Assembly (NCBI GenBank): GCA_963693365.1
Contig: CAVNZM010000019.1
Span: 322,130 to 386,129, forward strand
Origin: Amoebidium appalachense
Taxonomy: Eukaryota; Protista; Ichthyosporea
Direction: 5' to 3'
DNA: 64,000 nucleotides
In this document: piece by piece, positions 1 to 51,861 of the stretch
Layout: every line of letters starts with the position of its first letter
How positions within the stretch are numbered: position 1 is the stretch's first letter
Notes under the pieces: model-generated
The model's input: the letters and a program-made list of their open reading frames with translations, nothing else
Told to the model about the DNA's origin: nothing
Database searches by the model: none
Position numbers and translations under genes: made by a program

Positions 1-435
1 AAAATTGACTGGTTATGATACAGTATTGATGTGATGTGAACGTCGCGATTTACAACACTCCAAGCACGCCAATTTGAAAACAAAACCGAAATATTAATTT
101 GAAAACAATACAGAAATATTTAAACCCGATTTATACGAACATTTTTGCCATTGTTTTCCTATTGAACAGGTTGTTGTTTTAGTTTCTACTCAGAGTTCGG
201 AAAAGCGACTCGCGGTCAGGGTTATAACCGAATTGGGATCCCTGAAACAAAAACCCAAACAAAGATTGAAAAAACGGACCCCCATCCACAACAGACCCAA
301 GCTCTGTTTAGTTGTTTTTGCGCCGAAGGACACTTTCGCACCCTGGCAAAGCCACTGGGACCAATCAAATTGGCTATAGGACCCATATAACACCATCACT
401 GCTTCGGATGCTGCCAGTCTTGCAAACCTGCAGCT

Positions 436-1452
436 ATGAACCACAAGCCAAACGTTAACCTGTGGCGCCTGCGCGACAAGCTCTTCCAAGCGACAACACC
501 GGCCAGCGAGGCAGCGCTCATGGGCGTTCCCGTCTTCGGCGAATTCGACATGCACTCGCCCCCAGCCAACATGCACTCGTTCCCCGCCAACACAAAACCT
601 GCACGCGCAATACCGCCCAAAGACGACTGCGTGCATGCACAGCCTTCCCAACCCCCTTTTGCAGTTGTGCACGCACCGCCCCTGTGCAGCAAGGACGTGC
701 GAGTGTACCCGTTGCAGACAACATGGCCACCACCACCGGGCAAGATTCCGCTACGCAGGATTCTCCCGTACAAGACTTCAGGTGCTGCGGCCAGCGACGT
801 GGAACAAAAGCAACGGGATGTATTTTATTGGAAGGCAGGGGCGAATCCAAGTAGATGTGGACGGTACTTACGCAAAAACAAGATGGGGGCCTCCAAAAAA
901 CTCACCTCCCCGCGCCTACCAGTGGCAGTCAACGCCGAACCCAACGCGCCCTGGCGACCACTCTCTTTTCCGGATTTGGACACGGAAGAGACCACAGAGG
1001 CAGCGGATAGGGAGAACGCAGCAGCGCCCCCAAGCAGCCAGGTGTGCGAAGCAGCAGCGCCCCCAAGCAGCCAGGTGTGCGAAGCAGCACGCGAGCCGCT
1101 CGTGTACGAGGACCACAGTTCCGTCGACGTCGACGACCAGGTGGCCTTCACGGGGCAGATGGTATCCACGAGCAGCCCCCAGTCGGAGACAACGGGAGAG
1201 CAGTGCGAGATCTGGGTGTCTGTCGATCGATCTCCGCACCCCCCATACATCTACTACAACGTGAAGCATGTCATAGTGCAAGTAACAAACAAGGGTTCTA
1301 AAATACACATCGCATACGAGGAGGCCTCCTCCAACCAGCTGTGGCAACTGCAATTTAAGGACAACAAGAAGCCTTTGCATGTAGTCATAGGAGGCAATGG
1401 AGAAAACACTGTTGCGGTGAATGAGGTGTGGGTGTGCATTCGACCAGGATAG
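436..1452 (+). CDS. Hypothetical protein, 338 aa, Pro/Ala-rich with a beta-rich C-terminus
   Basis: ATG-to-stop ORF preserved at identical length in copy 50376-51392; CCAAT and TATA-like motifs upstream; internal AAAPPSSQVCE duplication. Confidence 0.7.
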   Translation: MNHKPNVNLWRLRDKLFQATTPASEAALMGVPVFGEFDMHSPPANMHSFPANTKPARAIPPKDDCVHAQPSQPPFAVVHAPPLCSKDVRVYPLQTTWPPPPGKIPLRRILPYKTSGAAASDVEQKQRDVFYWKAGANPSRCGRYLRKNKMGASKKLTSPRLPVAVNAEPNAPWRPLSFPDLDTEETTEAADRENAAAPPSSQVCEAAAPPSSQVCEAAREPLVYEDHSSVDVDDQVAFTGQMVSTSSPQSETTGEQCEIWVSVDRSPHPPYIYYNVKHVIVQVTNKGSKIHIAYEEASSNQLWQLQFKDNKKPLHVVIGGNGENTVAVNEVWVCIRPG

Positions 1453-1816
1453 TGGTGTGGGGTGTTTGCTGGGTGGGTGAGTGTGTATGGGAGAGAGGAA
1501 TGCTATACCCGTAATATAGACAGGGCAGTGTGTACAAGTACCACAATGTGATATGCTATGATATGCCCCAACCCATACATGTGCAAATGTGCAAACCAGC
1601 GCAAATATCCCATCGTTTGTTTCTTACGATGTCTTCTCGTAAGCACGATTTGGTGCAAACATCATCTATGTATCTGAATCCTAACATGTAAGCGAGACTT
1701 CACGACAGCAAGAGTGAATAAACGCAAAAGTCAATACATAACCACACTTGGACGTATCTGAAACATGCATGTGCGTATGTGTGTGTGGTGTGCATGTGTG
1801 GTGTGTGTGTGTGTGG

Positions 1817-1884
<68 letters not shown>

Positions 1885-1962
1885 TATGTGTGTGTGGTGT
1901 GTGTGTGTGTGTGGTGTGTGTGTGTGCCTGTGTGTGCGTACAGATGTACAGATGCCAAGTCT

Positions 1963-3242
1963 TCACGATTTATTTTGCGGGGTGCCCGTGGTGGCCGGCA
2001 CCCACACATTTTGCCACCCAGAGGGGAAAAGCATCCACAACCACTCACCCTCGGGGGAGTTGGGGTCTTCAACTTCTAAATTCTCGCATACAGTATCTTT
2101 AACAGGCGGTGTGAGCGGGCTTGGGGATGGGTATGGGCTTGGTGGAAGATATGTGCATGGTGGGGGTTGGGGAGAGAAATGGGTGTTTGTGTGGGCTTGT
2201 GGGGCAGGAACAAGTCTTCGGGGGGGCCAAGCCCGGTCGCAGCTGTCGTCTACGGCCAACAAGCAGCCTCGCACAGCCGTCCACACCATGCTGATGCTGC
2301 AGGACGAGTGTGTGGCAGTCGGCACACACGAGCACGGTGGCAGGGCATGCAAAGATGTGCAGGCAGTGTGGACAAGGACAGGAATGGAAGCGGAGGGGGA
2401 GGTCGGCGGCCACGTAGGCCTGGGGTGTGCCGGGTGAAGCTGGGCGGCGGCGGCAGCTGCACAAGGGGCAGTATTCGAGGGCGGGGGTGTACTTGTCAGT
2501 GACAAGGTGGCGCAGGCGACCCGCACGCATGTGAGCGAGAAAGGCCTCCGCATTGCGGTAGTGTGTGCATGCACAGACGGGGGAGGCACATTCGGGCACG
2601 GGAGCGGGGAAGCCAACGTGCCACATGGCACATGCAGGGTTGTGCGGGGCCATGCGGTGGGCGGTGGGGAGGGGGTCTGGGATGTCGGGTATGCACGTGC
2701 ACGTGACGGGTATGGTGGTCAGCAGGGAGTAGACGGCATTCCAAGCCCGCCGACGCTGTGTGTTGATATAGTTGTGGGTGCGACGGGCGATGCGGAAGGC
2801 ACAGTGGGTGCCGCTACGGCATGTGTCGCAGCAGCCGGGGAGGCCGGGCACGGGAGAAGAGTGAGTCGACAGCGAGGTGAAGCACGAATAACACAGATGG
2901 GGAACACTTGTTGTCGCAAGGGTCAGGCAGTGGTCGCAGCCACAAACAAAATGGGTGATGGCGGGGAAGTGTTTTGCCTTCGTCTTGAGATGCGGGGTGT
3001 TGTGGTAACCGCAGACGGCACACGCGTCGGAGGAGCCGCCACAGACGCGAAGGTCTGTGCAACGAGTGCATTCACAGCCTTCAACGGGCTTTGGGGGTGA
3101 AGGGAGGGGCGGGGGGAGTGGGTGGGGGGAGTGGGGAGTTCATGTTTTGCAAGGGTGGGTGAAGAGAAATCGCTGTGAGCGAAAGGTGAAAAAACGAAAA
3201 GGTGAACAAACGAACCCGATTGGAGTGAGAGTTGATGTCCAT
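1963..3242 (-). CDS. Cys/His-rich (multiple CxxC) protein; frame breaks at homopolymers or a 5' intron; boundaries approximate
   Basis: Many CxxC motifs (CTRC, CAVC, CDHC, CDTC, CPLC, CPHC, CADC) when ORF pieces of this copy and of 52010-53272 are joined; the two copies break frame at different G-runs. Confidence 0.55.
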
Positions 3243-3624
3243 GTGACACTGTTTGCCTGTCACACAATCTTCAATTAAAAATGCCATCGCGTCATGGAAA
3301 TCTCCCGCAAGCGACAAAAACGGTGGGGTTTATTAATGAAACGCAATTTACATGGCAATCCGCGCCGCGGAATGCGATTTAATCAGACAAGATCGATAAA
3401 CCCCCCTTTCTCCTCAAAGATCAAAGGGTGGTGATCAGACGCCAAATGATCTGATTGGTCAGCTTTATATCACGTGACATGATAAGATTATGACACATTT
3501 GATAAGCAGGCATTGGGTTATTGGGGCTGTCGAGCTCAAGTGCGAGACAACGCGCAACGTTTAGCGGCTATTGTTGATGATTATGTAGGTGTATATAAAG
3601 ACTGAAATGCCAACAGAAGAGGCC

Positions 3625-3937
3625 ATGGCTCCAACACAAAACCCCAAACCGGCTGCACCTACGATGCCGAACCTAAAAGCAGCAAAGCCCAAACCCACCA
3701 GTACAAGCGCGCCCAAACCGGCTGCACCTACGATGCCGAACCTAAAAGCAGCAAAGCCCAAACCCACATGCACAAGCGCACTCAAACCGGCTAAAAAAAA
3801 AGTATGTATCCCAGGACAAGTGCCCCAACAACTCCAAATCGTGCAAGCTTGCGCGGCGCTGCCCCGTGTGCACAGGACTCGTGCGACGCATCCATCCGTA
3901 CATGTCCGCCCAACCTAAAGACTCCGATCCATCCTGA
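3625..3937 (+). CDS. Small Lys/Pro/Ala-rich basic protein with a C-terminal Cys4 motif; frameshift in an A-run
   Basis: Copy 53671-53982 is intact (…KKKYVSQDKCPNNSKSCKLARRCPVC…); TATA (gtatataaag) upstream; 69-nt internal duplication. Confidence 0.6.
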
Positions 3938-4864
3938 AGCATGCACACTCTTCGTGTCCGGCCGGGGTGTCCGGGCGCTCCTGCATGGCATAGAAGAAGG
4001 ACTTGGGCTCCATGGGCAACTGCTGTATGCCGGCAAAGGCCTTCTCCAGGGACCGACCCAGCTTCCCCAGGTCGCGCAGCTGGGGGTCCATGAAGGTGCT
4101 GCTGGCTGGGACGCCGTGTGGATGGTGCACGTCAACGTCCAGAGCCTCCAGGGCGCGCGAGAGAAACGTGTAGAGGTGCAACGTGTTGATGTCGAGCGCA
4201 GACGTTATCGAAACGCCCGTGTCTATATTGATGCGCTGGGCAAGCACCTTGAAAACCAGCGCCTCGGCGTGCTGGGCGCAGATGTTGCGGGTCTTGAAGC
4301 GGGAAGTGACTTGCACGTTTGCGACCTTTTCAAGGATGGTCACCAGGCTGTGGACGTCAAGCACGGATGTCGAGCTGAGTGTGGCCACCAGGAAACCGAC
4401 AAAGGTAGCGCGAATGTGGCGGGTGGCATCCAGAGGGGTGGTGGAAGGGCGCGCGCCACGGGTCTTCTCGTAGAGCCGGGTTTCGTGCAAGTGCAGCGCC
4501 TTGCTGCGGGCGCTGTTAAACCACCCCAGAAAATCGAGGGCCAGGGGGGACTCGTACAAGACCTGGGTGGTCAGGTGAAGAAACGCAGCCGGCGAGACCA
4601 GTATGATGTTACCCTTTTTGCAGTAGTGTGGGGTACCCTGTAGGGATCATCAAAGATCAGCATGGATTGAGTATGGTGGGGGTGGGTCACCCTTCGGATC
4701 CGAGAACACGGGAAAGAGATAGTCAAGGATACTGAGAAAGAACATACCCACGCAAAAAGCTACCGCCGCCACGGCCACTATGGTGCCCGGATCCACCATT
4801 TAGTAGGGGTGTTGATAAAGTGCCGAGCAACAATTAGCTTTTTGTGTGTGTGTGTGTGTGCGTG

Positions 4865-4912
<48 letters not shown>

Positions 4913-5655
4913 GGGGGGCTGCCTACCGGGTCTGTGCTTGGCACACCGCCGACGACGTTGGCGATTTTGGCCTGGTCCAGACGGTCCCGGATCTCATTGA
5001 TGTCCCTGTAGCCGAGAAGCGCACAGATACTACCAGCGTCCAGGTAGAAGAGTTTGTCCCTGCTCGCGGCATACGGGAGCGTGCAGTTGACGAACGGTAC
5101 AAAGCACAGCGGGTGAAGTCTGTCGAACGCCTGTTTCAACAGCTGCGAAACGGGCTGGGGTGCAAGATGGCGCCTCCAATCACTAGCTGTGGCAATCGCT
5201 TTGATTTCACCAGGTGGCTTTCTGGTCATTGAAATGTTAGCGCGCGGGCGCTTTGATTGTCTCGTGTCAGAATCGTGGTTCTCGGCAGACCCGAGCTGGT
5301 CAAACCATGTTGTGGCTGGCGTGGTTGTGGTGGGTGGTAGCGTGGGGGCTTGAGTGGCGACCGCTTGCAGATGCAGATGTGTGGGAACAGGACGCGCCGC
5401 CGGGGAGAGGGGGATTGTCTCGCCGCAGACCATGTCGAAGTCGAAGACGTGGTTCTGGCCGTGGCTCGTGGCTGTCGTCGGGGTGGGGGCATAGAGCATG
5501 GAGCCATCACCTAGTTGGTTGTCAAAAGCAGAAAAATCGTCGGCGGTCAGCGGAACGAAGTCGGTACTGTGTATGATACCCAGGTCGGGTTGTGGGGTGG
5601 GTGGAAACGTGAAGGTGCTGTATGAGACAGGCGCAGCGCCATGTGTCGTGTACAT
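3915..5655 (-). CDS. Spliced gene (exon 1 5655-4927, exon 2 4637-3915, ~483 aa); distant paralog of the MSV199/AntA-like family
   Basis: Donor CCG|GTAGGC and acceptor CTACAG|GGT join in phase 0. [12 protein letters not shown] resembles ISGRAVFKLLGY, and QRINIDTG…[10 protein letters not shown] resembles ERIRLWTG…DMTTQQLYTF. Both splice sites are conserved in copy 2. Confidence 0.7.
4650..4799 (-). CDS. 49-aa single-pass membrane micro-protein with PPPY motif, nested in the predicted intron
   Basis: [49 protein letters not shown]; copy 54692-54847 differs mainly by third-position changes and one in-frame 3-nt indel. Confidence 0.55.
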   Translation of the reverse strand: MVDPGTIVAVAAVAFCVGMFFLSILDYLFPVFSDPKGDPPPPYSIHADL

Positions 5656-6217
5656 TTTGCCTGTGTTGCCTGAGTATCTGTGTTTGTAGAATGCAATGGC
5701 ATCGGCCGAGTGGATGTGACCTTATATACTTGCTTGGCAATTCCGCGACATATGATTGGATGTCAGACTTTGTTATTTGAGTGGATTCTATTGGCAGCCA
5801 CGCTGGATTGGCTTTTTGGTGATCTTAGTCCCAGAGTAGTGCAAAACGACTCAAGATATTTCCGAGCCGCTAATGCACTCAATGTTTACAAATGCAACAT
5901 CAAAACATTGACGTAGTACCTACAGTTTCTCGGATGGTTTAACCTTCTTTGATTTAATCGAGTTAAACACAACCTTTTACCCATCAAACATTTCATCACC
6001 AAGGGCTTCTTTGAAATCGATGCTCGACCAATCGCAGACAACCAATCACAATTAACCAATCAGATATGAATAGAATGTTCACTGAAGTCTCAAGCCAAAG
6101 AGCACAAGTTCGATATCCAGTAAATTCGCGCTTCACATATGAACCCACTATGTTATCATGATTTTTATTGTTTATTTCCCATATATACAGACATACATGT
6201 TCCCACATAATTTCATG

Positions 6218-6595
<378 letters not shown>

Positions 6596-6914
6596 TATCT
6601 GGTTATTGGTAATAAACAATGACACCACACCAACAAAATTGAGTCGGGTGCGAGCCAAACCATTTTTTTGTGTTGTGTGTGTGTGTGTGTGTGTTGTGTG
6701 TGGTGGGGGGGGGGGGGGAGGAGGGAGGGAGCGCAGATCCTTGCTTTGCACACTTTGTACCGTCTGTAATCACTTACCTGCTCACTCAAGTGAATTCGAA
6801 GCACACAGATGTGATGGTGTGTGTGTGCGTCTGTGTGCACACGTGTGTGTGTGTGCACACGTGTGTGTGTGGTGTGTGTGCACACGTTGTGTTTGCGTGT
6901 TGTGGTTTTTTTTT

Positions 6915-7037
<123 letters not shown>

Positions 7038-7320
7038 TTGGGGGGGGGGGGGGGGGGGGGCTGTGGTGTAGGAAAGGATGGTAGGTCCAACTGTATCTGT
7101 ATCTGGGTATTGGTTCACATTAACGAGAGTTTATTCTTAAGTCTTGGATCAAATCCCTGCACTATGCCTGGAACTCTCCGATCGGCTCTGGGGACATCAT
7201 CATTTTTCCGTCATTTACACAGAGCACCAGAGGTGGTTCGGGCGGATCGGTTTGCTCGTTCTATAACTCTAGCGCTATACACTAACACCCCCAAGCGACC
7301 AGCGCTACACAACCCACACT

Positions 7321-9211
7321 TCACTCACTATCACTGTCCGCAATCACCACAACATCAACGGGCCCCTCGTGCTTCTGCAGGTGCGCGACCTTGCGGCGAC
7401 GCCCCAGCCGCCCGCGCTGCACATACACGTCGAGCTGTGTCTGCCCCTTGATCTGCTCGCCGCGATCGGCCAGGGGCGTGTCGAGGCTGACAGTGCGCCC
7501 GAGGTCCAGGGGGCGGATGTTGGGGAACTTGTCCTGGATAGCGCCCAGCCAGACGGCCATCTCAATTGGCACCCCGATGTCTGTGGGGACCACCACCTTG
7601 TCGTCAAGGGTGGACTGGAACAGCTGTCCCCTGCAGAAGCCGACGTACCAGCCCACAAAGTTGTTCATAAACGTGTAGAGCTGCTGCGTGGTCATGTCCA
7701 TCCAGCAGGTCAGCACGTGTCCGGTCCACAGGCGGATGCGCTCCTTGATGGCGCGCTGCAGCCCGTTGGTTGCCGCCGCAACCGACAACACATTGGTCGG
7801 GAACAGCACGCACACACCGGTAACGGCCATCACCATACTTGTGTACTTGCCGGCACAGCGCACTTCGTGGCCTTCCAACGTCCCCACACACATGGAGATG
7901 AATGCCCGAACCAGGCGCCGGAAGTCGGTGTTGTCAATGTACTTGGCATCGGCTGACTGCGGCCCCAGCTTGACGCGTTCGAGGGCGGCGACCAGGGGTG
8001 CGAGCGCCTCGTCCAGTGCGGTCTCGGCTGCCTGCTTGGGATCCTCAAGGGTTGCACGAGCCTCCGCAGCAGCGACAGCTTCAGCCTCTGCAGTGGCAAG
8101 AGTTGCCAAAAAGGCCGTGTACTTCCCGTCGTTGAGGTTGCGCATGAGACGCACAAACCCCTTCTCGATGTCAAGGGCCAGCCCACGGAAATCGCGAGCC
8201 AGCCAGCCCGAGTTCGCATCCGAGCCCATGATAGCGGCCATCCGAAAGCCCTCTGGTTTCAAAAGGTGATCTTGTTCGGTACGGCCACCGATGCTCTGTG
8301 GACAACAAGGTTAGCGATGAGTCTTTTTTTTTTTGCGGGTCATATATGGAGCCCTACAACGATGGATACCCCATATAACAGCGAAAGATTGATGAGCGAG
8401 CTAAACCTTACATGGGGAAGGGCGCAGGAGGCCATAAGAAGAGCAATTATCCGAAATAAATGGAAGAACAACAAGGATTACCGAAGCAAAGCCATGCCAT
8501 CAACCGGGGGGCGGCCAAGAATTTCATACAAGTTTACACGCCAAGCTTTTGAAACAATTGTAAAAAGCTTCAAACCATCAGGCAAACAAGCAGAAGAAAT
8601 TGTTCGTGTGCGGCTGCAACAACGAGAGGGCGGGAAAAAGCAACGAATAGCACGTGGGGAAATTGATCTCTTAACCGATAAAGATGTAATCGAAGTGAAA
8701 CATGTTCGTGGTTGGAAAGGTGCACTCGGACAAATTTTGGTGTACGGGTTGGAATTTCCAAAGCACACAAGAAGAATCCATCTCTTCGGGGAGGCGCCAC
8801 CCAGCTATTACGCAGACGTCGTTGGCTGTCTACTGAGGTTTGGAATCTCCGTTTCCATAGAGCCCGGGGAATGCGATATAGCAAAACTCAACGAGTACCT
8901 CAACAACTCACCTTCTCAACCACCCGGTACTGGTGGGCAGGCATCGCAGCAGGAACACCATTCTGCCCCTTGAACATGACCCTCACGAAGTCATTGTACC
9001 TCCGGTACCCCAGCAGCTTGAACACGGCGCGCCCGGAGATGGTCTCGGTGCTGTCCAGCAGGAACGGGTCCAGGAAGCGCAGCACCTTGACCACCACGTC
9101 GTCGCCCACGGTGCCCAACAGGCGCTCGAGCTCGGGGGAGATGGGAGGGAAGCCAGCCTCGCAGGCACCGGCAATGTTGAGGCGCTCGTAGATGGCGTAG
9201 GTGGAAGCCAT
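7321..9211 (-). CDS. Spliced gene (exon 1 9211-8912, exon 2 8295-7321): MSV199/AntA-like DNA-binding domain, coiled coil, and C-terminal domain with PIP-box-like motif
   Basis: Exon 1 is exactly 100 codons ending AAG|GTGAGT; branch point GCTAAC and acceptor TCCACAG|AGC; the splice gives YRVVEK|SIGGRTEQDHLLKPEGF, in frame with ORF 7321..8262. Confidence 0.8.
8362..8973 (+). CDS. PD-(D/E)XK restriction-like nuclease with an N-terminal AntA/MSV199-like domain, antisense within intron 8296-8911
   Basis: Motifs E…GEIDLLTDKDVIEVK…WKGALGQILVY…RRIHLFG; N-terminal KDY…STGGRP..Y.FT; near-identical copy at 35643-36254. Confidence 0.8.
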   Translation: MDTPYNSERLMSELNLTWGRAQEAIRRAIIRNKWKNNKDYRSKAMPSTGGRPRISYKFTRQAFETIVKSFKPSGKQAEEIVRVRLQQREGGKKQRIARGEIDLLTDKDVIEVKHVRGWKGALGQILVYGLEFPKHTRRIHLFGEAPPSYYADVVGCLLRFGISVSIEPGECDIAKLNEYLNNSPSQPPGTGGQASQQEHHSAP

Positions 9212-9597
9212 GGTCACTGGTTGTGTGTTGTGTGTGTACCGTAAAGGTGCTGGCTGTCCAGCGCTTGCTGTGTTTATATAGGGGGCATCCGGCGTTTCAT
9301 TGGTTGTTCGCTTCATTGGTTGTAGGAGGAGAGGAATGGAATCCAGCATTCGATTGGAGAGAAGTGCAAAGAATACTGGTCCCAGATGATTGGGTCGATT
9401 TGTTCGGCGCTACGTGCACTTTTTACACATATGCTGCATGCCATTCCCCTAACCAATCGAATGCTGCATTCCACCCCCTCCTTCTACACCCAATGAAGCG
9501 CCGTTTTACGGTGCTCACACACCCGTCACAACCCCTGTAACTCCAAAGTGCCAACTTTTCAATTCTAAATTATAATAGCGCTATCATCAGTAGTGTG

Positions 9598-11073
<1,476 letters not shown>

Positions 11074-13948: not shown

Positions 13949-14009
13949 GTGTATCAACGTATTTTCCATTACATTGTGTGTGTGTGTGTGTGTGTGCGTG
14001 TGTGTGTGT

Positions 14010-14825
14010 GTGTGTGCATAGCGCTAGAGTTGTGTAGCGCTGAAAGCGCATATTTATGAAGGCGCTCCCATCAGTGAGTTGGGTTGCACTCACCGACTAT
14101 CCAATCAAATCACTGCAATGACTTCATCGGCAATTTCATTATTCAAACTGTCGGGATGCGCGCGATTTGATTGGTGAGTTGATGAGTTGCTACAGAAACC
14201 GACTTTCCATACCCCACACACCACACACCATGCACCTACATGTATACGTATGTTACAGTATCATTCTTGCATATGTAGGTATCTATATAAATATAAATAT
14301 ATATATATATATTAAAATCAAATAAAAGACATATGAACTTCACTTTTGTAAATATTTATTTATATATTTATATTAAATGAACATTGAAGTAGTCTTCCAA
14401 GTATAGCAACCCAGTCATCCGATGTAGTATCACTACATGATCCTTTTGGAAGAAGGTTAGAAGAATATGAAAAGGTCAGTGTATACAAATAAAAATTAGA
14501 ATACAAAGAAATGTATATATATATATTATGTGTATATAAGTATACATATGTATAAAAATATGTACGCTTGTATGTATATGTGTATGATATATATAGATGT
14601 ATGTGTGTGTGGTGTGTGGGGTATGAAAAGTCGGTTTCTGTAGCAACTCATCAACTCACCAATCAAATCGCGCGCATCCCGACAGTTTGAATAATGAAAT
14701 TGCCGATGAAGTCATTGCAGTGATTTGATTGGATAGTCGGTGAGTGCAACCCAACTCACTGATGGGAGCGCCTTCATAATTCGCTTTCAGCGCTACACAA
14801 CTCTAGCGCTATGCACACACACACA
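14010..14825. repeat. Long inverted repeat (~220-bp arms) around a ~370-bp AT-rich core (family P1)
   Basis: 14017-14229 is the reverse complement of ~14604-14815; same arms and core as the units at 60400-62865. Confidence 0.92.
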
Positions 14826-14841
14826 CACACGCACACACACA

Positions 14842-15081
14842 AGGCCGGTTCCCCCCCCATCACCCCCGAGCTTGAGCAGCTGCTGGGCACTGTAAGGGAC
14901 GATGTGGTTGCTAAGATGCTGCGCTTTCTGGACCCCTTTCTGCATGACAACACCGAGACCATCTCTGGGCGCGCCATTTTTGGGCTGTTGGGGTATGGCA
15001 ACTAAACAGTTGTGCGCGCATTCAGGGTGTGAAAAGTTCCATCGTCGGCCTACTGGCAACTACTTGCCGTTGAGATGGAGG
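14842..15081 (+). pseudogene. 5'-truncated, stop-containing copy of MASTY-family exon 1
   Basis: AGSPPITPELEQLLGTVRDDVVAKMLRFLDPF…LLGYGN*; ends GAG|GTGTGT and is followed by sequence like the 34405 intron. Confidence 0.75.
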
Positions 15082-15367
15082 TGTGTTCTGTTTCAATTGC
15101 TTTGAACTATTGACGTAATAATTGTCAGCCAGTTGGGCTGTCAATTGTCTGATTGGTTGTGTGATTAATTTTCTTGGTCATGCATATGGTCTAGAACCAT
15201 GGTTGTAAAAGGCAACGACAATAAAGCACAGCAAAATATAAAAACACGGGAGCAATGGGAGCCCAATGCGCGTTACTATGTTAACACAGAACCACCCACC
15301 ACCAACCCACCACCCCCACAAACACCCACACACCCACACACACACAAACAATAACACACCACACACA

Positions 15368-18486: not shown

Positions 18487-18785
18487 ATGGCTTCCACCTA
18501 CGCCATCTACGAGCGCCTAGACATTGCCGGCGCCCGCGAGGCCGGTTTCCCCCCATCACCCCCGAGCTTGAGCAGCTGCTGGGCACCGTGGGGGACGATG
18601 TGGTGGCGAAGGTGCTGCGTTTTCTCGACCCATTCCTGTTGGACAGCACCGAGACCATCTCAGGGCGTGCTGTGTTTGGCCTGCTGGGTTACAGCGACTA
18701 CAGGGAGTTTGTTAGGATCATGTTTAGGGGGCGCGACCATAAAGATGGCCTTCTCAATCCATCATTATTCAATGTCGTGGAGATG
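18487..18785 (+). pseudogene. MASTY-family exon 1 (1-nt loss in a C-run); exon 2 cut off by an LTR insertion
   Basis: ORFs 18487 and 18588 join to give exon 1 ending ATG|GTAAGC; the sequence after the branch point gctaacacaaagactgt is replaced by an LTR. Confidence 0.75.
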
Positions 18786-18801
18786 GTAAGCGTTTGCTAC
18801 G

Positions 18802-19340
18802 TTTTGTGGTGGCCTGGCTCAAAAGCCCCCTGTTCTATTTTTGGCAAGCTTCGGACTCTGGTTTCTATTTATAGTCCATGTTGACGTCATCACTTTTGTG
18901 GTGGCCTGGCTCAAAAGCCCCCTGTTCTATTTTTGGCAAGCTTCGGACTCTGGTTTCTATTTATAGTCCATGTTGACGTCATCACTTTTGTGGTGGCCTG
19001 GCTCAAAAGCCCCCTGTTCTATTTTTGGCAAGCTTCGGACTCTGTTTTCTATTTATAGTCCATGTTGACGTCATCACTTTTGTGGTGGCCTGGCTCAAAA
19101 GCCCCCTGTTCTATTTTTGGTAAGCTTCGGACTCTGGTTTCTATTTATAGTCCATGTTGACGTCATCACTTTTGTGGTGGCCTGGCTCAAAAGCCCCCTG
19201 TTCTATTTTTGGCAAGCTTCGGACTTTGGTTTCTATTTATAGTCCATGTTGACGTCATCACTTTTGTGGTGGCCTGGCTCAAAAGCCCCCTGTTCTATTT
19301 TTGGCAAGCTTCGGACTTTGGTTTCTATTTATAGTCCATG
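18802..19340. repeat. 92-bp tandem repeat x~6 inside the intron
   Basis: Units start at 18802, 18894, 18986, 19078, 19170 and 19262; complete units contain TGACGTCA and a ggact…agtcc stem; degenerate version at ~27287-27547. Confidence 0.95.
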
Positions 19341-19369
19341 CAATTCTAGTTGCTAACACAAAGACTGTT

Positions 19370-20560
19370 TGTAAACAGTTGGACTAGCTAGGATAAGGCA
19401 GAGTACAACTGAATCAAAATAAAGACAGAGAACGGGTAGAAAGGCACACGCGGCCAGGTTGCTTTTACTATGGGCCGACTCAGTCTGTCTCAGACTTCAC
19501 TGATGTGATCCCCGTACTGGGACGGCTTTGTTATATAGCCCCCAGGTTTCGGATCAAGGCCCAGGATTGGTTCATCCGCGGCCAGCGCGGGTGGCAACAT
19601 GCCATTCGTGATTCTGGTGCGGTCCGAGCCAGTCAGACCTTTGTCCTATTTATGCAAACCTCTTATTGGTTCAATTCGTTTATGTGGTATGCAGCTGAAG
19701 AACCATATATGGTTCAATTCTTAGGTCAGAGTGAGTCCTATTGGTGTGGACATAATATTTATGTGATATTCATGACAAAGAACGAATTGTGTGCTAGTAG
19801 ATCACATTCTTTAGTAAACATGTACAGTTCATGTGTACAGTTGTTTACACTCCCCCCCTTGTCGGGAGCCTGGTGGTGTCGTTAGGCAAGCAAACCACCA
19901 GGCTGAGAGGCGATAAACAACCTTCAGCGAGAATTCTTGTGCGCCGAGCTGCTGGGCAGAACAGAGCAAGGATGGTTGAATAGAGTTGTGCACGTCTATG
20001 AGCACTTCTTCGTTTGCCAAAACGTAAATTCATGCAGCATTCTTCTGTGCGTTCATTTTCGTGGCGAAGATTGTTGCAGTGTTCGTGCGAATTGTTCGCT
20101 TCGTCTCTGTGCTTGGCTTTTTCTGTAGAAGTAATATTTTCCTTTTTGGGAATTTTTCCTTTTTAGGATACTCCCGCAGATTCGTTTTCAATTGCGAGTA
20201 ATTTGGTTGTGTGGATGAATGATCATACCAAGCATTCGATAATGAATATAACTCAAGCCTTAGGTCACTTCGTAGCTCAGGTAGTGGTGGATAGCTTCAA
20301 GGCTTAGCCGCTGCTCCTTATCCCGGTTCTACCTTAAGACTGTAAGGCGAGTCGCCATGGCCAGAAAAGCCACTTCTTTCATGAACAAATAGCACTTCTT
20401 TCCTTTCAGCTTTAACCCTGCATCATCGGAGCTGGGAAAAACAGAATAAAAATGCCCTTAGTGTTCTTCGTTGGGTGACATAAAGAAATCTATCAGCCCG
20501 TTAGAACCATTAAAAACCCGGTTCATAATTCATAAGTCTATGAAAAACACGGCGGGGGGG
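19370..20560 (-). mobile_element. Ty3/gypsy-like LTR retrotransposon remnant: 3' LTR (19370-19849), PPT (19850-19860) and degenerate RT
   Basis: LTR ends TGTAAACA…TGTTTACA; adjacent minus-strand polypurine tract AAGGGGGGGAG; minus-strand RT motifs PAVF(H)RLMN (~20530-20555) and AGLKLKGKKCYLFMKEVAFL (~20360-20422). Confidence 0.75.
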
Positions 20561-25897: not shown

Positions 25898-27000
25898 TGG
25901 TGGGGACTACGGCGGCACCAATGGGTGGTGTGTTGCTGGATGTGAAGCCGCCGGTCAGCCCGGAACATCCCTAGGGTCTCGAATCTAAGAGCACGCGGGC
26001 GCGAGGCGCGACATAGGAGACGGGTGGACGCGAGGGAGGTGGAGAAGGGCAGCAGCGAGGAAAGTGAAGCAAACGAGCGGCCAAACGCAGCGAAATGGGT
26101 TGTGGAGTAAGTTGATGCCGCCAACCGGTGTCGATTGGTGGTCGCCAGCGCAACGGTCCTGCCCGAGTTGCGCGTAAATGCGGAAACCCAGCCGTATATG
26201 GCCCGATAACGTTCTTCGCCGAGCCGGTCGGATTGGGTGGGATGTCGGTGCGGGCTGCGCAGGGGAAGTCGGCACACCACCGCAGAAGAGATCGAAGTCA
26301 AAAAGACTGCGCAGGGGCTCCGCGGTGTAGGCAGCGAGGCAAATCATCGACCCACCAGCGAGAAAGTTGGAGTCTCAAGTACCACGTCCGACCCGTCAAG
26401 GGAGGTGTGTCGATGCCCTGCAGAAACGCAAGTCGCTGGTGAGGGAAAGAGAGTGTGACATCGGCAGGCTGGGAAACAACGGAGCCCCGGCGCGCGAATC
26501 CAAGTTGTGGAATGTGTGGCCGAACAGCGGAGGAACCGTCTGCTGCAGTCCAGCAACGATTCTGCATCAAGGTGTTGGCAGCTAAGGGCCGATTGGCCAG
26601 GGGCGAGATTGGTCGATCCTGATTGGCGAAAAGCACTGTGAACCGGATCAATCGGATTCGCGGAAAAGTCACCAACACCAAAGTCGGTCGATGGGCCGGC
26701 GAAGATCGATTGTCACGTACTCAGGCAGATGCCCATGGTCGGTGAAAACACGCAAAAAGCACGAGAATGCACAAAAAGCAAGGAAAATGGACAACGTGAA
26801 ACTAAAGATGACACGAATGTGGTGAAATGGGGCCTGTTCGGCCTGTACGCGGCAGCATGCCGTTTCTCCCGTGAGCCACCTGACTCTGGCGACTTCTGCA
26901 TGTAGCGCCCGTCATTGGGCGCGGGCAAAAAACCGACTGCCACCGTTGCAGGCACCAGTCTGCACACGCACACTGCCGAACACATCCAAACAACACAACG
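20560..27000. other. Degraded, T-depleted third copy of the F-box to MSV199-like gene block (probably low-quality consensus)
   Basis: 21335-21410 resembles 49555-49632 (F-box gene start); 23800-24500 resembles 2300-3060; 24948-25140 resembles 3625-3900; 26700-27000 resembles 35068-35400; all with dense indels. Confidence 0.65.
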
Positions 27001-28890
27001 CTCCACCACGCCATCTACGAGCGCCTCAACACACGGCGCCCGCGGGCCGGCCCCATCACCCCCGAGTGAGCAGCTGCTGGGCACCGTGGGGGACGATGTG
27101 GTGGCGAAGGTGCTGCGCTTCCTCGACCCGCTCAAGGTGGACAGCACCGAGACCATCTCAGGGCGGTGTGTTTGGCCGCTGGACAGCGACTACAGGGAGT
27201 TTGTTCGGATCATGTTTAGGGGGCGCGACCAAAAGATGGCCCCAATCCACAATACAATGTCGTGGAGATGGTAAGCGGCCGTATCATTTTGTGGTGGCCT
27301 GCCAAAAGCCCCCTGTTCTATTTTGGCAGGCTCGGACCGCTATAGTCATGTTACGTCATCACTTTGTGTGGCCGGCCAAAGCCCCCTGTTATTTGAAGCG
27401 GACTGTTAGTCATGTTGAAGTGGTGGCGGCTCAAAAGCCCCCTGTTCTATTTGGAGGCGGACCTGTTATAGTCATGTTGACGCACTGTGGTGGCCGGCAA
27501 AAGCCCCCTGTTCTATTTTGGAAGCGGACTTTGCATATAGTCCATGCAATCTAGTTGCTAACACAAAGACTGTCCCAGAGCACTGGTGGGCGACCAATGA
27601 AGGACCACCTGCTGAATGCCGATGGATTCCTCACCGTGGAGAGATCGCCAACGGTCGGCGACAGTACGTATGTGGTGTTGCTGTTCGAAAGGCATTTGCC
27701 CGTCTGGCCGAAATCAGCAAGACCAGTGCCCTGCCGCCTGCAAGCCGAGACCACTGCTGCCGAGGAACGTGCCCGGGCGCACGAGGGACGCCAGAGAAGG
27801 CGAGCAGTGGTACACGGAGACGCCGAGCTCCTGGACTCCGCCAACGAGCGCCTTGCCACTATGAGGGCGACAACGGCACCCGCAGCGCATCGTTCTCTGC
27901 GCCCCGGCACCTCGCCCAACACCCGCTGCATGGAGACGGACTACGGGCGCGAGCTGGCGCGCAAGGTGTTCCACGACGCTGCCGTGCTGCTGTGGCGCCG
28001 CCACGAGGGGTGAGCACCTGTGTGACCCCACCTACTGGAACCGCTCATCAAGGACCACATGAACGTGGACCCCGACCAGGCAGTGTACCGCTCGCACATC
28101 AACATGTACACGGCGCTCTGCAAGGCGGCCTTCACCTCCACGGCGTGCCCAAGGTCACCCACCTGACCTACAACCAGCTCTATGCCGTGCTTCGTGTTTT
28201 TGCGCTCTATGAAAACTACTCCGGGACGTGTGTTGCCTCTAGGGGGACATCCCCTTGGACGAAAGTGAACCTGCAATGGTTGTAAACCACGGCAAGCCCC
28301 CAGTCATCAATTTATTGATCCGTGAGGTCCATGTGCCCAAAAAACGGGGGAAGTCTTCGCCCCGTGAAAAAACAGCACGTATGTGTGGATCAATGGGGGT
28401 TGTGTGTGGGTGTAGGTGGGTGGGTGAAAAGGAATATATAGCTGTAAGGCTGTGGATGCTAAACACAGAAGATGTGTTTGTAGCTTGCTGATCTGCTAAA
28501 AACTGTCGTGCTTATATACCTAAGCCTACCGATCTGAGCCAATCAAAAATCGATCTAGTGATATGTGAAATCTGATCCGAGCCAATCATAACTCGGTCTA
28601 GTGATCTGTGGTATCTGATGTTTTGACTGGCTAATAGGTGCCCGTGTGCGGGCAGCCAACCGCTAACTGCTAAAACACGAAATGAAGCCTACATGGTTGT
28701 GTTGGTATCGAACACCCATCCTACGTGTTTACCCAGAAAAATATTTATGTCAATAATTTCCACAAATAAAACCTCTATGAAAACTACTCCGGGACGTGTG
28801 TTGCCTCTAGGGGGACATCCCCTTGGACGAAAGTGAACCTGCAATGGTTGTAAACCACGGCACGAGAGCAGTATGCTTGCTCCAAAGGTT

Positions 28891-29922
28891 TCACTTAAGA
28901 AGAGAGGCGAATACACGTGTGGTGGTGGCAGCAATGGAGGCCGGACGAAGTCGGGTATAGATCAGGAAGCAGTCGGAGGACCACCGGCCGAGTTGTTTGA
29001 TCCGGGAGTCGTCGACCCCGGCCTCAGCCAGTGCTGTGGCCCCCCCGATGCGGAGGCTGTGTCCGGCAAACCGGGAGGGTGAGAGGCCTGCCCGGGAGAG
29101 GAGGGCACGGAAATCGGCAGAGAAAGCACTCTTGGTGTAGGGGATGCCACCGAGACTGAAGAGGGGGTCGTCGGGTTGACCGGACGTTGTATCCAGGAAC
29201 TGCCGGAGGAGATGGGCTGGGGAGAAGTGGGTGAGGGGCAGGGCAGCTAGGGTGACGTTGACACCTCGGGCCTGTACATCCGTCTTAGAGGTTGGCAGGT
29301 GGAGGGTGGCATGGGACAAAGTACCGGTGGGGGTGTAGCTGAAGGTCACGTCCTTCCGTTTAACGTGACGGGACGGGTCGAAAGAAGTCAGGGTCTTGGA
29401 GGTAAATTCCCCTGAACGGAGGAGACCACAGAAACCGACGATGAGGGCCGTCCATAGCCGGAGATTGGCCGAGGAGGCCTTGGTGGGGCACTGGCCATGG
29501 AGTAGGCGGAGGTGGGAGGGGAGGAGGGGTTCCCTGGTGGATGAGCGGGGTCGGATGTTGTGAGAAAGCTGCCATCGGCCTACCCCCCGTAGGAACCAGG
29601 CCAGAGACTTGTCGTGGGGGTAGGGAGCAGGGAGGCCCATGTCGAGGTGGAGCCTGGTGATGGCCGAATTGTAGCCGGTTAAGGAAGAGGCCTGTACCCC
29701 TCGTTGGGCACACCAGGCGAGAAAAAGTTGCACGGTGTGTGGGGAGGCCGGGAGGGAGGACCCGGAGGAGGATTGCAGCCGAGATGCCACACAGAAATCG
29801 ATGAACACTTTTTGCACCCGGGAGTAAAAGGCCCGAGAGTCGAGGTTGAGACTCAGGGCCTGGCATTCCTGCAGGGTAGTGGTGGCTCGAAGCAGCTCGG
29901 CCGGAGCAAAGTGGGGGGCCAA
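28891..29922 (-). CDS. Tyrosine recombinase of the retrotransposon
   Basis: Catalytic motifs FCGLLRSGEF (R), TSKTD (K), GHSLRIGGAT (HxxR) and LGRWSSDCFLIY (W, Y); start uncertain. Confidence 0.95.
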   Translation of the reverse strand: MAPHFAPAELLRATTTLQECQALSLNLDSRAFYSRVQKVFIDFCVASRLQSSSGSSLPASPHTVQLFLAWCAQRGVQASSLTGYNSAITRLHLDMGLPAPYPHDKSLAWFLRGVGRWQLSHNIRPRSSTREPLLPSHLRLLHGQCPTKASSANLRLWTALIVGFCGLLRSGEFTSKTLTSFDPSRHVKRKDVTFSYTPTGTLSHATLHLPTSKTDVQARGVNVTLAALPLTHFSPAHLLRQFLDTTSGQPDDPLFSLGGIPYTKSAFSADFRALLSRAGLSPSRFAGHSLRIGGATALAEAGVDDSRIKQLGRWSSDCFLIYTRLRPASIAATTTRVFASLLK

Positions 29923-29953
29923 TCTGCCAGTGTTGCTCCGGAACGGGAGATCT

Positions 29954-29990
<37 letters not shown>

Positions 29991-29993
<3 letters not shown>

Positions 29994-31643
29994 GCCCAAG
30001 GGAAGGGATAGGAACTCGTGGACCCAGGAGGGGAAGGGGCAGGGCTCCGGTTGCAGGGAAGGTCGGAGTCGTCGGGCCCGGGGAAGTTGGTTACGAGAAA
30101 TGGCATCGGCCAGATGGTTGAGGGGTCCTGGTAGGTAGGATGCCTGTAACGTAAATTGGTATTGCATTTCCATGCGGGTGATGAACCGAAGAAGTTTGGC
30201 CATCACGGGGTGGGGGGAAGACCGGGAGTGCAGGTCAGACACAGCACCCGTGTTGTCGCATAAAATACGGACATGGTGGGTGGACCAGGAGGGGGCCCAG
30301 AGGGCCACGGCGGCTGCGATGGCCAGGAGTTCGATGACGGAAGAACCGAGTTTGCCCTCATGAGCATAGAGGGCTTGGGTGGAGGGGGACCAGGGCATGA
30401 AGAACCATTGGTCGAGCCAGTGGCCACCTAGACCCACCGATCCGGCAGCATCAGTGGCCAGGGTGGTGTATGTGGGGGGTGTGATGAGGTGCACCCCATT
30501 CCATGATGTGAGGAACTGGTGCCATTCGGCTATGTCGGCCCGCGCGGCAGCAGTCAGTCGTATGTGGTGGTGGCCGGCAAGGTGTGGGTGGGTTCGGAGA
30601 AGGGCCCATAGGCGCTGGGAGAAGGCCCTCCCGGGGGGAACCAGCTGGGCACACCAGGTGAGTTTGCCGAGGAGGGACTGGAGGTCCCGAATGGTGATGG
30701 TGGGTTTTGGGTGGGAAGTGAGGTCGAGTAGGTCCGAGAGCTTGGAAGCCGGGATTCGTGCCTCCATGGCGATGGAGTCGAATTCGATACCGATGAAGAC
30801 GACACGGGTAGCCGGGCCCTGCATCTTGTCTTCGGAGATGGCAATGTGCAGCTCTCGGCAGAGTTGCAGGAAGGTGGATAGGTGACGTTGGCACTGCTCT
30901 TGTGTGGGGGCGACTATAATCCAGTCGTCTACGTAGTGGCGGATGAGGGTAATACCGTGCTGGTGTGCCAGCCACTGTAGGGTGGCCGCGATCCGTTCCC
31001 AGATGGCTGGGCTAGATTTCAGGCCGAAGGGCAGTCTGGTTTCAACGTAAAAATGCCCTTGCCATTTGAATGCCATTAAGTGGTGGTCTTCCGGTCGGAT
31101 GGGCATGTGCCGGAAGGCAGCCTGCACATCTGCCACGGCCATGTAGCAGCCGGGGCCTGCGTCGAAAATGAGTTGGGTGACATCCCGGGCGCGAATGTAC
31201 TGAAGTTCGTCGGGGTAGGTGATGCTGTCATTGACACTGCTACCCCGGGGCCAGGAGAGGTGGTGGATTCGACGGTACTTGGGGGGGTTCCCTTTCTTGG
31301 TAACGGCGCCGATGGGGGAGGAACGGTGGACGGGAAATTCGTCAAAGAATTGGGCCGGGGAGAGGGGGCCGCGCAGGTGGCCGAGGGCGACTTCTTTGGC
31401 AATATCCACCGTGATAGCGGCAGCTGCCTCCGGGGTGGTGGGTAGGTTGGGGCCCACCCGAGAGGTGGAGGGGCCGCGATAGCCGATGTCGACGCCGAAT
31501 TCGACATCGTGGAGGAGTTGTGCGGCGAATGGTTGGTCCGGGTAGGAGGCCAGCAGTTCCCGGAGGCGGGAGGTGTCAATGTGGTGCTGGGGCAGCGGGC
31601 GGGCCACCGGGTCTGAGCCTCGGGGGAAGGGGGTGGTTAGCAA
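29991..31643 (-). CDS. pol: Reverse transcriptase / RNase H
   Basis: KYRRIHHLS, DVQAAFRH, LPFGLKSSP, HYVDD; RNase H motifs TDAA, IELLA, CDN, NHLADAISR. Confidence 0.96.
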
Positions 31644-31674
31644 GGGTGGTGTGCCCTTGGGGAGATCCCGGCAG

Positions 31675-31722
<48 letters not shown>

Positions 31723-32116
31723 CAGGGCCCCGGGGGTTAGAGTAGGGCAGCTGGGCCCAAGTGAGGGTTGGCAGGGAGGGCAGCGGGGCCCTGTGCAGGG
31801 GAATGTGCCCGAGCACGCGGGGGTGTGGGCGGACACAGCGGTAGAAGAAGGGGGGGGGGGGGGGAGGGAGTGCTAGGTGAGTGTAAGGGGGGGGAGGCTC
31901 GTGGGATGGGGGGGGGAGTAAAATTATGTGCAGTGGCCAGAATAAACGTCTTTGTGTAGGGACATTTATTCGTGACGCGCGCGGGCGCCGTAGTTGGCCT
32001 GCGAAATTTTGTACTCAGCCCTATTGGCCCGTTCTCCCGAGCTCCGTTTCCCTGTACTCGTGTGTCCTAGCTCCTAACCCCTATGTTCTAGCTGTGTGTG
32101 TGGGTGTGCGCGTAGA

Positions 32117-33286
32117 CTAGGCATTGTGCTTGCAGTCTTTGCGGGGGTGTGTGCCAGAGCAGAGCGGGCACACGTGGGAGAAGGGGCAGGGCTGCTTAGC
32201 GCAGGACCGACCGTTAATGTGGAAATTCCTGCAGTGCGTCGCGGGTAGATCCACGGGTCGGGCCGGTTTTGCCGGGCCGGGTTGCGGGCCAGGGCGGTTC
32301 GGGGTGTGACCCCCGCCGGGCTTGTGGGGCGGCTTAAAGCCGTCAAGACCACAGCCGGGCTTGGGGTACATGGGGCAGGCCGCGCTGGGGTGGTCGGGGA
32401 AGCCACAGCGCTGACATGCGTCCGGGATGAGCAGAGTGGGTGGCAGGAGGAGATCCTGGTGGAGTTGGGCGAGCAGGTTGGGGCACTCGATCGGAGCCCG
32501 ACCCTGCTGGTGGGCAACGGTGCGGGCGTATACGTCATAGTTGTGGATCTGGGCCCACGGGTATCGGGTGCTGAGGCGAGTGATGTGCTGAGTCCAAAGT
32601 ACGTCTTTGTCCGTGGGAAGGCCGAGGTGGTGCTTGGCGGCCATGTAATGGGTCCAAGCTTGGATCCAAATGACGAGTGAACGCAGGGGAACGGGTTTGT
32701 CTTGGCGAAAAGTCTCGATGCTGCCGTCGTCGGCCATGCGCAGATGCTGACCTTTCTTGGATGGGGCCAGGAGGGCGGCGGGGGTGAACTTATACAGATC
32801 GACGAAACGATTGGCGCGCAAATCTGCCAGCACATCCGCGGGGGGAAGCGGGAGTGTGCCCGGCTGAATGTCGCCAGTGTTCTCACCTGTGATGGGGGGC
32901 GCGGGCAGGGCAGGTAGGTCTAGGTCAGGGCCGAGATGCAGCCCCGGGGAAACCTCCCCGGGTGTGGAGGGCGCGGCGGGGGGCGCGGGAGGGTCGCGGT
33001 TGGTGAGAGCAGCCAGGACGCCAGCCATCTGGGTGCTGATGGCGGTGAGGGCGGCCAGGACGGCGTCTTGAGAAGTCATCTGCGGGGACGGCGGGGCCTG
33101 AGGGGGAACTTCAGGAGTGGAGGGGAGAGTAGCCGGCGGGTCCGGGTCCGTGGTGGTATGGGCCGCTGGAGGCGCGTCAGTGTCCGCGGGAGCGTTGGTC
33201 AGCCTGTGGCGGAGGTCGCTGCGGGTCAGGCGCTTAGGTGCCGCGGCAGGGGCGGCGGCTGAGGCCTGGCGCTTTTTCGGCGGCAT
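32117..33286 (-). CDS. gag: Gag-like protein with a C-terminal Cys/His zinc finger
   Basis: First ORF after repeat A1; YDVYAR helix, CQRCGFPDHPSAAC knuckle and CRNF…C…CPFSHVCPLCSGTHPRKDC finger. Confidence 0.85.
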   Translation of the reverse strand: MPPKKRQASAAAPAAAPKRLTRSDLRHRLTNAPADTDAPPAAHTTTDPDPPATLPSTPEVPPQAPPSPQMTSQDAVLAALTAISTQMAGVLAALTNRDPPAPPAAPSTPGEVSPGLHLGPDLDLPALPAPPITGENTGDIQPGTLPLPPADVLADLRANRFVDLYKFTPAALLAPSKKGQHLRMADDGSIETFRQDKPVPLRSLVIWIQAWTHYMAAKHHLGLPTDKDVLWTQHITRLSTRYPWAQIHNYDVYARTVAHQQGRAPIECPNLLAQLHQDLLLPPTLLIPDACQRCGFPDHPSAACPMYPKPGCGLDGFKPPHKPGGGHTPNRPGPQPGPAKPARPVDLPATHCRNFHINGRSCAKQPCPFSHVCPLCSGTHPRKDCKHNA

Positions 33287-34101
33287 GCTGACCGGCGTAG
33301 GGAAAGATAGGGAGAATGAAAAGGAATATATAGCTGTAAGGCTGTGGATGCTAAACACAGAAGATGTGTTTGTAGCTTGCTGATCTGCTAAAAACTGTCG
33401 TGCTTATATACCTAAGCCTACCGATCTGAGCCAATCAAAAATCGATCTAGTGATATGTGAAATCTGATCCGAGCCAATCATAACTCGGTCTAGTGATCTG
33501 TGGTATCTGATGTTTTGACTGGCTAATAGGTGCCCGTGTGCGGGCAGCCAACCGCTAACTGCTAAAACACGAAATGAAGCCTACATGGTTGTGTTGGTAT
33601 CGAACACCCATCCTACGTGTTTACCCAGAAAAATATTTATGTCAATAATTTCCACAAATAAAACCGCATGGGCGTCTGCCTGGTGCAGAAGGCCGAGCTG
33701 GAGCTTGTGTTTGGTGACCAGCTGGACAAGTACGCACAGACCACCCTGGACAAGTTTATGGCCTAACCTATCTGTTTTAATTTAGTGTTGTGAAGTTGTT
33801 TTGGTGTAGTTCAGTGTATATGGGATATATTTCATTGGTGTGTGTGTGTATGTTGGTGCATGTAGCGCCGAATAAATATACATGCAAAGTACTACTTCCC
33901 GCGTGTGGAGTCCCCCCCCCAACCCAAATTGTGAGTAACTACAGAGATGGATTTGTCATCAGAATATACCCGTTGTGAGAGATGTGTATTAAGCCCATCA
34001 AAGTCGCATTGGGTCCTGGGATTTGTATAAAAGTCGGATGCGAAACACGGTAGTCACATACTTGAACACCAACGATACGTTCATTTGCAATTAAAGCAAC
34101 C

Positions 34102-46064: not shown

Positions 46065-46142
46065 ACTCAATGGGTTAGAAAATAAAAAATCGGATGGCGC
46101 TGCAGAGCCCGTCCCCCCCCCACCTTCTCATCCAGTAACCGC

Positions 46143-51719: not shown

Positions 51720-51755
<36 letters not shown>

Positions 51756-51861
51756 GTTGTGTGGTTTTTTTGTTGTGTTGTGTTTGTGTGGTGTGTGTGT
51801 GTGTGTTGGTGTGTGTGTGGTGTGTGTGTGTGTTGTGTGTGTGTGTGGTGTGTGTGTGTGG

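Follow-up and report, generated by a model that had tools for sequence, protein, structure and literature searches.

We find that three members of a DNA-binding gene family (h1, h2 and h3) in the window (the whole stretch of DNA analyzed here, 64 kb in length) are each divided by a predicted spliceosomal intron, and that a putative PD-(D/E)XK nuclease is encoded antisense within each of these introns. We believe that this arrangement may well represent a selfish cassette whose nuclease cleaves sister copies of the host gene, with subsequent repair copying the cassette into them, in a process resembling the homing proposed for the spliceosomal 'shintrons' of mirusviruses. The initial annotation of this DNA had described a spliceosomal-type intron containing an antisense nuclease gene of this class, and that description is supported by the anatomy of the loci, the modeled fold of the nuclease, its invariant residues, the selection acting upon it and an Rfam search that returned no matches.

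Host gene h1 occupies positions 7321-9211 on the minus strand. Exon 1 (8912-9211, 100 codons) ends with the first half of a predicted AntA/MSV199/Bro-N-like DNA-binding domain, and exon 2 (7321-8295, 324 codons) encodes the second half of that domain, an Ala/Glu-rich helix and a C-terminal domain of no recognized family. The two are separated by a phase 0 intron of 616 nt (8296-8911; GTGAGT…CTAAC…CAG) with a GC content of 0.46, as compared to 0.62-0.63 in the exons of the same gene. Host gene h2 (35405-37301, plus strand) has its exons at 35405-35704 and 36318-37301 and a phase 0 intron of 613 nt (35705-36317; GTGAGT donor, CTAAC…CAG) that is 96% identical to the h1 intron. Host gene h3 (57625-59817, minus strand) consists of exon 1 at 59515-59817 (101 codons), exon 2 at 57625-58635 and a phase 0 intron of 879 nt (58636-59514; GTATGT donor, CTAAC…CAG). 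These boundaries and signals agree with those proposed in the initial annotation. All three of the cases that it counted are present, but h1 and h2 are 94-96% identical to one another, and the number of independent cases is therefore two. The predicted splicing of h1, h2 and h3 produces open frames of 424-437 amino acids. Between h1 and h2, both exons are under purifying selection (dN/dS of 0.18 and 0.25).

A self-search of the window identified four additional, nuclease-free paralogs (h4 to h7, all on the plus strand), each with a GT donor at the same codon as in h1-h3, bearing out the earlier claim that paralogs share the intron position in the absence of a nuclease. The first of these, h4 (34102-34726), comprises exon 1 (34102-34404), a 220-nt intron (34405-34624) and an exon 2 of 33 codons followed by a stop. 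Paralog h5 (26998-28230; 3' end approximate) has an intron at 27271-27578 and many small indels. In h6 (18487-19378) exon 1 is frameshifted, the donor is at 18786 and is followed by 92-bp repeats and a CTAAC motif at 19353; a search for its exon 2 found none. Paralog h7 (14842-15164) is truncated at its 5' end, with a donor at 15081 and an intron start of the h4 type. An acceptor matching that of the nuclease-bearing copies is present in h4 and h5. The host gene is open in all three nuclease-bearing copies and broken in all four nuclease-free copies of this assembly, a contrast that we count in favor of homing, although the copies are not independent of each other.

The case for these introns depends on the comparison of four intron types (h1/h2, h3, h4 and h5) and on the continuity of the encoded domain across the junction, rather than on the branch motif alone. 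The combination CTAAC…CAG occurs 24 times in the window versus 20.6 times expected, and so is not enriched in itself. CTRAC is found 5-30 nt upstream of only 81 of the 3011 YAG sites in the window. The non-coding parts of the four intron types are not alignable, yet their position and phase are common, and all four end in YAG directly before the same S/T-x-G-G/L-R codons, with a CTAAC branch motif in three types and CTGAC in h4. The read-through frame contains 5-8 stops in each of the five complete introns, and intron GC is 0.45-0.47 versus 0.62-0.65 in exons.

The earlier proposal that splicing rebuilds a DNA-binding domain is likewise favored, as a prediction, by profile comparisons. An alignment of the spliced host sequences matched an AntA/MSV199/Bro-N-like profile, which was home-built from 25 outside sequences only, with an HH probability of 86% over 54 columns that cross the junction, versus 33% for exon 1, 57% for exon 2, 16% for the read-through sequence and 0.3% for the reversed control. 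The members of this profile match Bro-N, MSV199 and AntA in Pfam only below the curated cut-offs, and the N-termini of host and nuclease have no direct Pfam match to domains of this kind. When profile scores were computed for single sequences, splicing produced a gain in h3 only (14.2 versus 5.9 bits; 5.5 versus 6.0 bits for h1).

The simplest alternative would be that no splicing takes place, and that the 'exons' are separate genes or remnants that flank an inserted nuclease gene. The internal ATG within exon 2 of h1, which opens a reading frame at 7321-8241, and the chance frequency of the branch motif would both fit such an arrangement; the common position and phase of four otherwise unalignable intron types, the domain match that spans the junction and the purifying selection on both exons all speak against it, and we regard it as very improbable. 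In h1-h3, splicing itself is a prediction from sequence, with spliceosomal donor, branch and acceptor signals found in three of three introns. Features of a group I or group II ribozyme core were not recognized in them: an Rfam search of the 64 kb gave no matches and hence no group I or II intron, and the h1 intron displayed no excess structure upon folding (z of 0.14). The non-coding part of the h1 intron is only ~66 nt, with the nuclease gene filling the remainder.

Homologs of the host gene were not found in a word-indexed protein search with exon 2, in searches of viral contigs with exons 1 and 2, in a search of metagenome contigs with exon 1 or in the Atlas. A structure model of exon 2, built from three sequences, had a pLDDT of 35. 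An apparent similarity between exon 2 and the C-terminal part of the public nuclease relative P0044 was rejected as not significant (E values of 0.028 and ≥1.1). P0044 and a further relative, P0195, each lie on a 183,011-bp contig deposited as Daphnia sinensis.

Nuclease 1 (8362-8973, plus strand) is predicted to contain an antirepressor-like N-terminal domain and a PD-(D/E)XK domain, and its last 20 codons overlap h1 exon 1. Nuclease 2 (35643-36254, minus strand) is intact, with a length of 203 amino acids. Nuclease 3 (58805-59579, plus strand) is distributed over two frames (58805-59152 and 59073-59579); the frame changes within an A-run near 59140-59150, owing either to mutation or to an assembly error. 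The earlier description of one opposite-strand nuclease ORF per intron thus holds for the first two copies but not for the third, while the D…EVK motif is present in all three, as had been claimed. Nuclease 3 is 54-57% identical to nuclease 1 in its core. The start common to copies 1 and 2 is probably the methionine at 8362/36254, as an ATG at 8317 is replaced by GTG in copy 2. The last frame of each copy does stop antisense to the host MFKG codons, as reported, but this position is probably no more than where the frame first meets a stop, since the tail that runs across the donor is absent in two homologs.

Residues D103, E112 and K114 are invariant among 105 aligned sequences of the nuclease family. 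The nuclease structure model (pLDDT 82.8) most closely matched the NucS-type repair endonuclease 2vld_B (Z of 10.2 and rmsd of 2.4 over 87 residues), and PD-(D/E)XK enzymes account for many of the highest-ranking matches. The predicted restriction-like core together with a D…(D/E)xK motif leads us to assign the intron-borne gene as a putative PD-(D/E)XK nuclease. Searches of the PDB with the model using Foldseek returned nothing at E≤0.001; the nuclease 1 sequence had no match in Pfam, PHROGs, phage records or PDB sequences and only matches below 0.8 in the Atlas, and nuclease 2 had no match in Pfam.

Purifying selection is evident between nucleases 1 and 2, both of them intact: over 183 codons they are separated by 10 synonymous and 10 non-synonymous substitutions (dN/dS of 0.27, p=0.005), whereas the two remaining frames of the nuclease strand give no such signal. 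A low value is also obtained for the host-strand mirror frame (0.26, with 177 of 183 codons countable), which we attribute to the third positions that it has in common with the nuclease frame.

The initial annotation had called for a comparison of nuclease and host phylogenies. The three nucleases form one clade (quick tree with 159 rows by 98 columns; SH-aLRT of 96), from which we infer a single entry into the intron; the same tree (98 columns, 14 of 156 branches starred) yields no donor lineage. Trees of the exon edges are weakly supported: the 3' half of exon 1 unites the nuclease-bearing copies at 66%, and the start of exon 2 pairs h3 with the nuclease-free h5 at 50%.

A sign of cassette movement is found in h1. 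The window contains two duplicated blocks of ~10 kb (about 319-9735 and 50259-60340), located ~50 kb apart and 93-95% identical (95% across the block genes), within which h1 and h3 are positional equivalents. Comparison of h1 with h3 gives identities of 0.966 for the promoter, 0.947 for the initial 150 coding nucleotides, 0.967 for the final 60 nucleotides and 0.956-0.982 for the 3' flank. Between those ends it is at most 0.74-0.82 (aligned columns), and the identity of h1 to h2 in the same region is 0.95-0.97. The h2-like tract extends approximately from 7380 to 9060 on the minus strand and includes the 3' half of exon 1, the intron, the nuclease and most of exon 2, with h3-like sequence on either side; the flanks of h2 are unrelated to those of h1. 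The combination of h3-like flanks and an h2-like core indicates that a cassette of ~1.7 kb around the intron was exchanged, with its ends in two conserved blocks.

This mosaic lends indirect support to the selfish spread among paralogs that the initial annotation had suggested, but other observations, including the weak exon-edge trees described above, weigh against that suggestion. An intron-less allele is represented by none of the seven family copies in the 64-kb window. Promoter type A is associated with three different cores (h1, h3 and h6) and type B with two (h2 and h5), and the nuclease-free core of h5/h6 is found behind both promoter types at 0.98-1.00 identity (aligned columns). A cassette without a nuclease has thus been shuffled as well, so that shuffling does not require a nuclease inside the cassette and plain recombination becomes a rival explanation. 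In addition, the exchange involving h1 and h3 is between two nuclease-bearing cassettes, and the divergence of the nuclease core (54-57%) is similar to that of host exon 2 (51-56%), as expected under long co-inheritance; we count both points against homing, along with the frameshift in nuclease 3 and the free-standing state of the public relatives described below. Low GC3 in the exon codons adjacent to the intron was considered as a homing signature and rejected: the values beside the intron versus the remaining codons are 30/48 versus 289/358 in h1 and 26/50 versus 323/372 in h3, and the nuclease-free h4 shows the same pattern (30/50 versus 72/79).

Shuffling of a nuclease-free cassette is what would be expected if nuclease and host protein, as members of one DNA-binding family, were linked partners that act together, and ordinary ectopic recombination between conserved blocks shuffled their cassettes. 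The two could form an addiction module, for example, with the host protein protecting certain sites from cleavage by the nuclease; nesting in the intron would simply lock the linkage. We regard such a pair, which the initial annotation had offered as its alternative, as quite possible although not probable. The N-terminal domains of host and nuclease match the same outside profile, with HH probabilities of 86% and 90%, respectively; compared directly, however, the two domains gave a probability of only 1.75%, and thus no demonstrated common binding site.

The relatives of the nuclease in public data bear on the same question. The family comprises 1342 representatives at E≤0.001, which are free-standing in giant viruses and phages, and the N-terminal DNA-binding domains of 105 relatives vary (KilA-N in 20 of 105, Bro-N in four, Rha in three). 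The same nuclease domain and the same modular construction are observed in fusions of KilA-N, Bro-N, AntA or MSV199 domains to PD-(D/E)XK nucleases from giant viruses and cyanobacterial phages (Foldseek E values of 2e-8 to 5e-5; 25-59% identity); examples in BFVD are L7Y5M1 of Megavirus lba, Q6XM53 of Feldmannia irregularis virus a and A0A2P0VMM5 of Tetraselmis virus 1. These viral fusion genes differ from those in the window in being free-standing, often in tandem with a paralog of the same domain. Antisense nesting within a GT-AG intron was observed at none of the 127 public loci (of 166) that had enough flanking sequence, in a screen that recovered two of three controls from the window and missed the frameshifted copy.

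A neighbor within ≤1.2 kb that shares the non-nuclease domain of the nuclease was found at 20 of 54 distinct public loci (those, of 104, with sufficient flank and domain length), as compared to none of 15 control ORFs. At 14 of the 54, the same-domain neighbor (KilA-N or AntA-like) lies directly downstream on the same strand, for example at L021, L024, L025, L028 and L046. We found no report of such a pairing between a nuclease fusion gene and a same-domain paralog in a limited literature search. The window itself contains a second such pair: a free-standing relative at 47413-48045 (plus strand), lacking the catalytic motif and fused to a D5-type winged helix, is positioned head-to-head with two tandem DUF5906 primase-helicases (44529-47315, minus strand). 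The public protein P0025 has the same construction with the motif intact, and its winged helix is 33% identical to that of the helicase. Together with the public neighbors, this pair suggests that nesting in a gene of the same family may be an extreme form of a family habit. These pairings favor a linked partnership, but 34 of the 54 loci are without a same-domain neighbor, and an equal pairing would be expected if a free-standing homing nuclease had acquired a portion of the gene that it targets.

A nuclease of low specificity that serves the surrounding element, for instance in DNA breakdown or in starting recombination, might also have landed by chance in a neutral intron site as a passenger. 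The size of the family, its free-standing occurrence in viruses and phages and its varied N-terminal domains would be compatible with such an origin, as would the purifying selection (which fits any useful gene) and the inclusion of non-specific nucleases among the fold neighbors of the model. A passenger would leave unexplained both why the host gene and the nuclease belong to the same DNA-binding family and why the exchanged tract brackets the intron, and we consider this explanation improbable.

Returning to homing, which we prefer, the family has one intron position, which is present in seven of seven copies. The nuclease would have entered that existing intron once, in antisense orientation, as its single clade suggests, and splicing would keep it out of the host protein. 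Its antirepressor-like domain is predicted to bind DNA and its D…ExK center to cleave it, the probable target being the sister allele near the intron, where the paralogs differ most. The h2-like core of h1 would then be the repair tract, with its ends having fallen in the 5' half of exon 1 and in the last ~60 nucleotides of exon 2. By these steps, the homing unit would be a nuclease cassette entering a pre-existing intron site, rather than an intron entering an intron-less gene.

The initial annotation had mentioned nuclease-bearing spliceosomal introns in some nuclear large DNA viruses, and this class has indeed been published: the mirusvirus shintron study (PMC12768974) describes 334 endonucleases harbored by spliceosomal homing introns, of four types (HNH, GIY-YIG, Vsr and PD-(D/E)XK, the last with 15 cases), and places 64% of shintrons in virion genes. 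According to a reviewer remark and reworded text in the same source (PMC12768974), shintron homing is a hypothesis drawn from metagenome assemblies, without experimental proof. A limited literature search found no further report of nuclease-bearing spliceosomal introns besides PMC12768974. The concept is therefore already published, and the case described here differs from it in the host family and in the coexistence of allele types.

Judged by that published description, the h1-h3 loci have the sequence-level properties of shintrons: a predicted GT-AG intron without group I or II structure, an endonuclease inside it, a fixed target gene and homing as the proposed mode of spread. All three nested nucleases are located at one codon of one family (two independent cases), and the predicted PD-(D/E)XK endonuclease is intact in two of three copies. 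A limited search of PMC12768974 gave no statement on the strand of its 15 PD-(D/E)XK genes. Unlike the shintrons so described, the host in the window is an expanded family of accessory DNA-binding genes rather than a virion gene, occupied and nuclease-free versions are present in one assembly, the 'empty' copies keep their intron and a mosaic tract is visible.

Two other kinds of mobile nuclease provide partial parallels. Group I introns of nuclear rDNA reportedly carry homing endonuclease genes in both sense and antisense orientation, and so resemble h1-h3 in having an antisense nuclease within a nuclear intron; those genes spread via a double-strand break. They differ in that the introns are self-splicing ribozymes with His-Cys nucleases, whereas the introns described here have no Rfam match. 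The free-standing homing endonucleases of T-even phages cut the cognate allele and co-convert long flanks, but are genes of bacterial phages that do not reside within spliceosomal introns.

The window combines an intact nuclease with the allele that carries it, another occupied allele and nuclease-free alleles of two types. The presence of occupied and nuclease-free alleles alongside an exchange tract makes homing directly testable in one cleavage assay. If correct, protein-driven mobility of spliceosomal introns would extend beyond the virion genes of mirusviruses into elements within cellular genomes, where nucleases could be reshuffling paralogous DNA-binding genes. A more tentative scenario, which we think somewhat unlikely as a whole, would be that a nuclease carrying the domain of its partner moved inside the spliceosomal intron of that partner and now drives the replacement of cassettes among the paralogs of one genome. 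In that event, the mosaic structure of h1 would provide the first footprint in a genome of homing by a spliceosomal intron, in which the donor, the recipient and nuclease-free target alleles are found side by side, and the window would display a route from a free-standing viral nuclease to a shintron.

The region as a whole looks virus- or plasmid-derived, on the basis of its two DUF5906 primase-helicases, several antirepressor-like genes and long palindromes. No Pfam match to a capsid, terminase, portal or polymerase was obtained among 28 + 126 ORFs of the window, in a scan that covered low-complexity ORFs, genes split by introns and the duplicated block's second copy only in part; nor was a mirusvirus hallmark gene found in the window. 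Relatives of the helicases are 33-57% identical, with matches in viral contigs at only 23-33%. The window also displays features of a eukaryotic type, namely spliceosomal signals, CA microsatellites, a DIRS-like element and F-box-like, SET and C2H2 genes, from which a eukaryotic source is inferred. Antirepressor/Bro-N-like motifs were noted by eye at 4834-5655, 54848-55915 and 41345-41977, with a faint Bro-N match (E of 0.29) for the first of these only.

A DIRS-like element with a gag-like ORF, a reverse transcriptase and a tyrosine recombinase (28425-33665) is located just downstream of h5 and is bounded by identical direct repeats of 349 bp. Long palindromic units, either origin-like or MITE-like, are present singly or in tandem arrays at 13975-14841, 40063-41238 and 60313-62870, with arms of ~150-200 bp, CCAAT-type motifs and an AT-rich core. 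The array at 40063 also contains the sequence TGACGTCA, which occurs 21 times in the window versus 1.4 times expected, with clusters inside the h3, h4 and h6 introns (sites at 18882-19257, 34471-34596, 58706-58813, 40133-41234, 6352-6370 and 56610-56628). In the h3 intron it forms part of a 50-bp TGACGTCA/CCAAT repeat (58699-58813) upstream of nuclease 3. This sequence may be the promoter sequence of the antisense gene, persisting or expanding where the nuclease is absent. Two pieces of ~50 bp that share 86% identity with the segment of the h3 intron just upstream of nuclease 3 are found at 34870-35010, between h4 and the h2 promoter and outside any intron.
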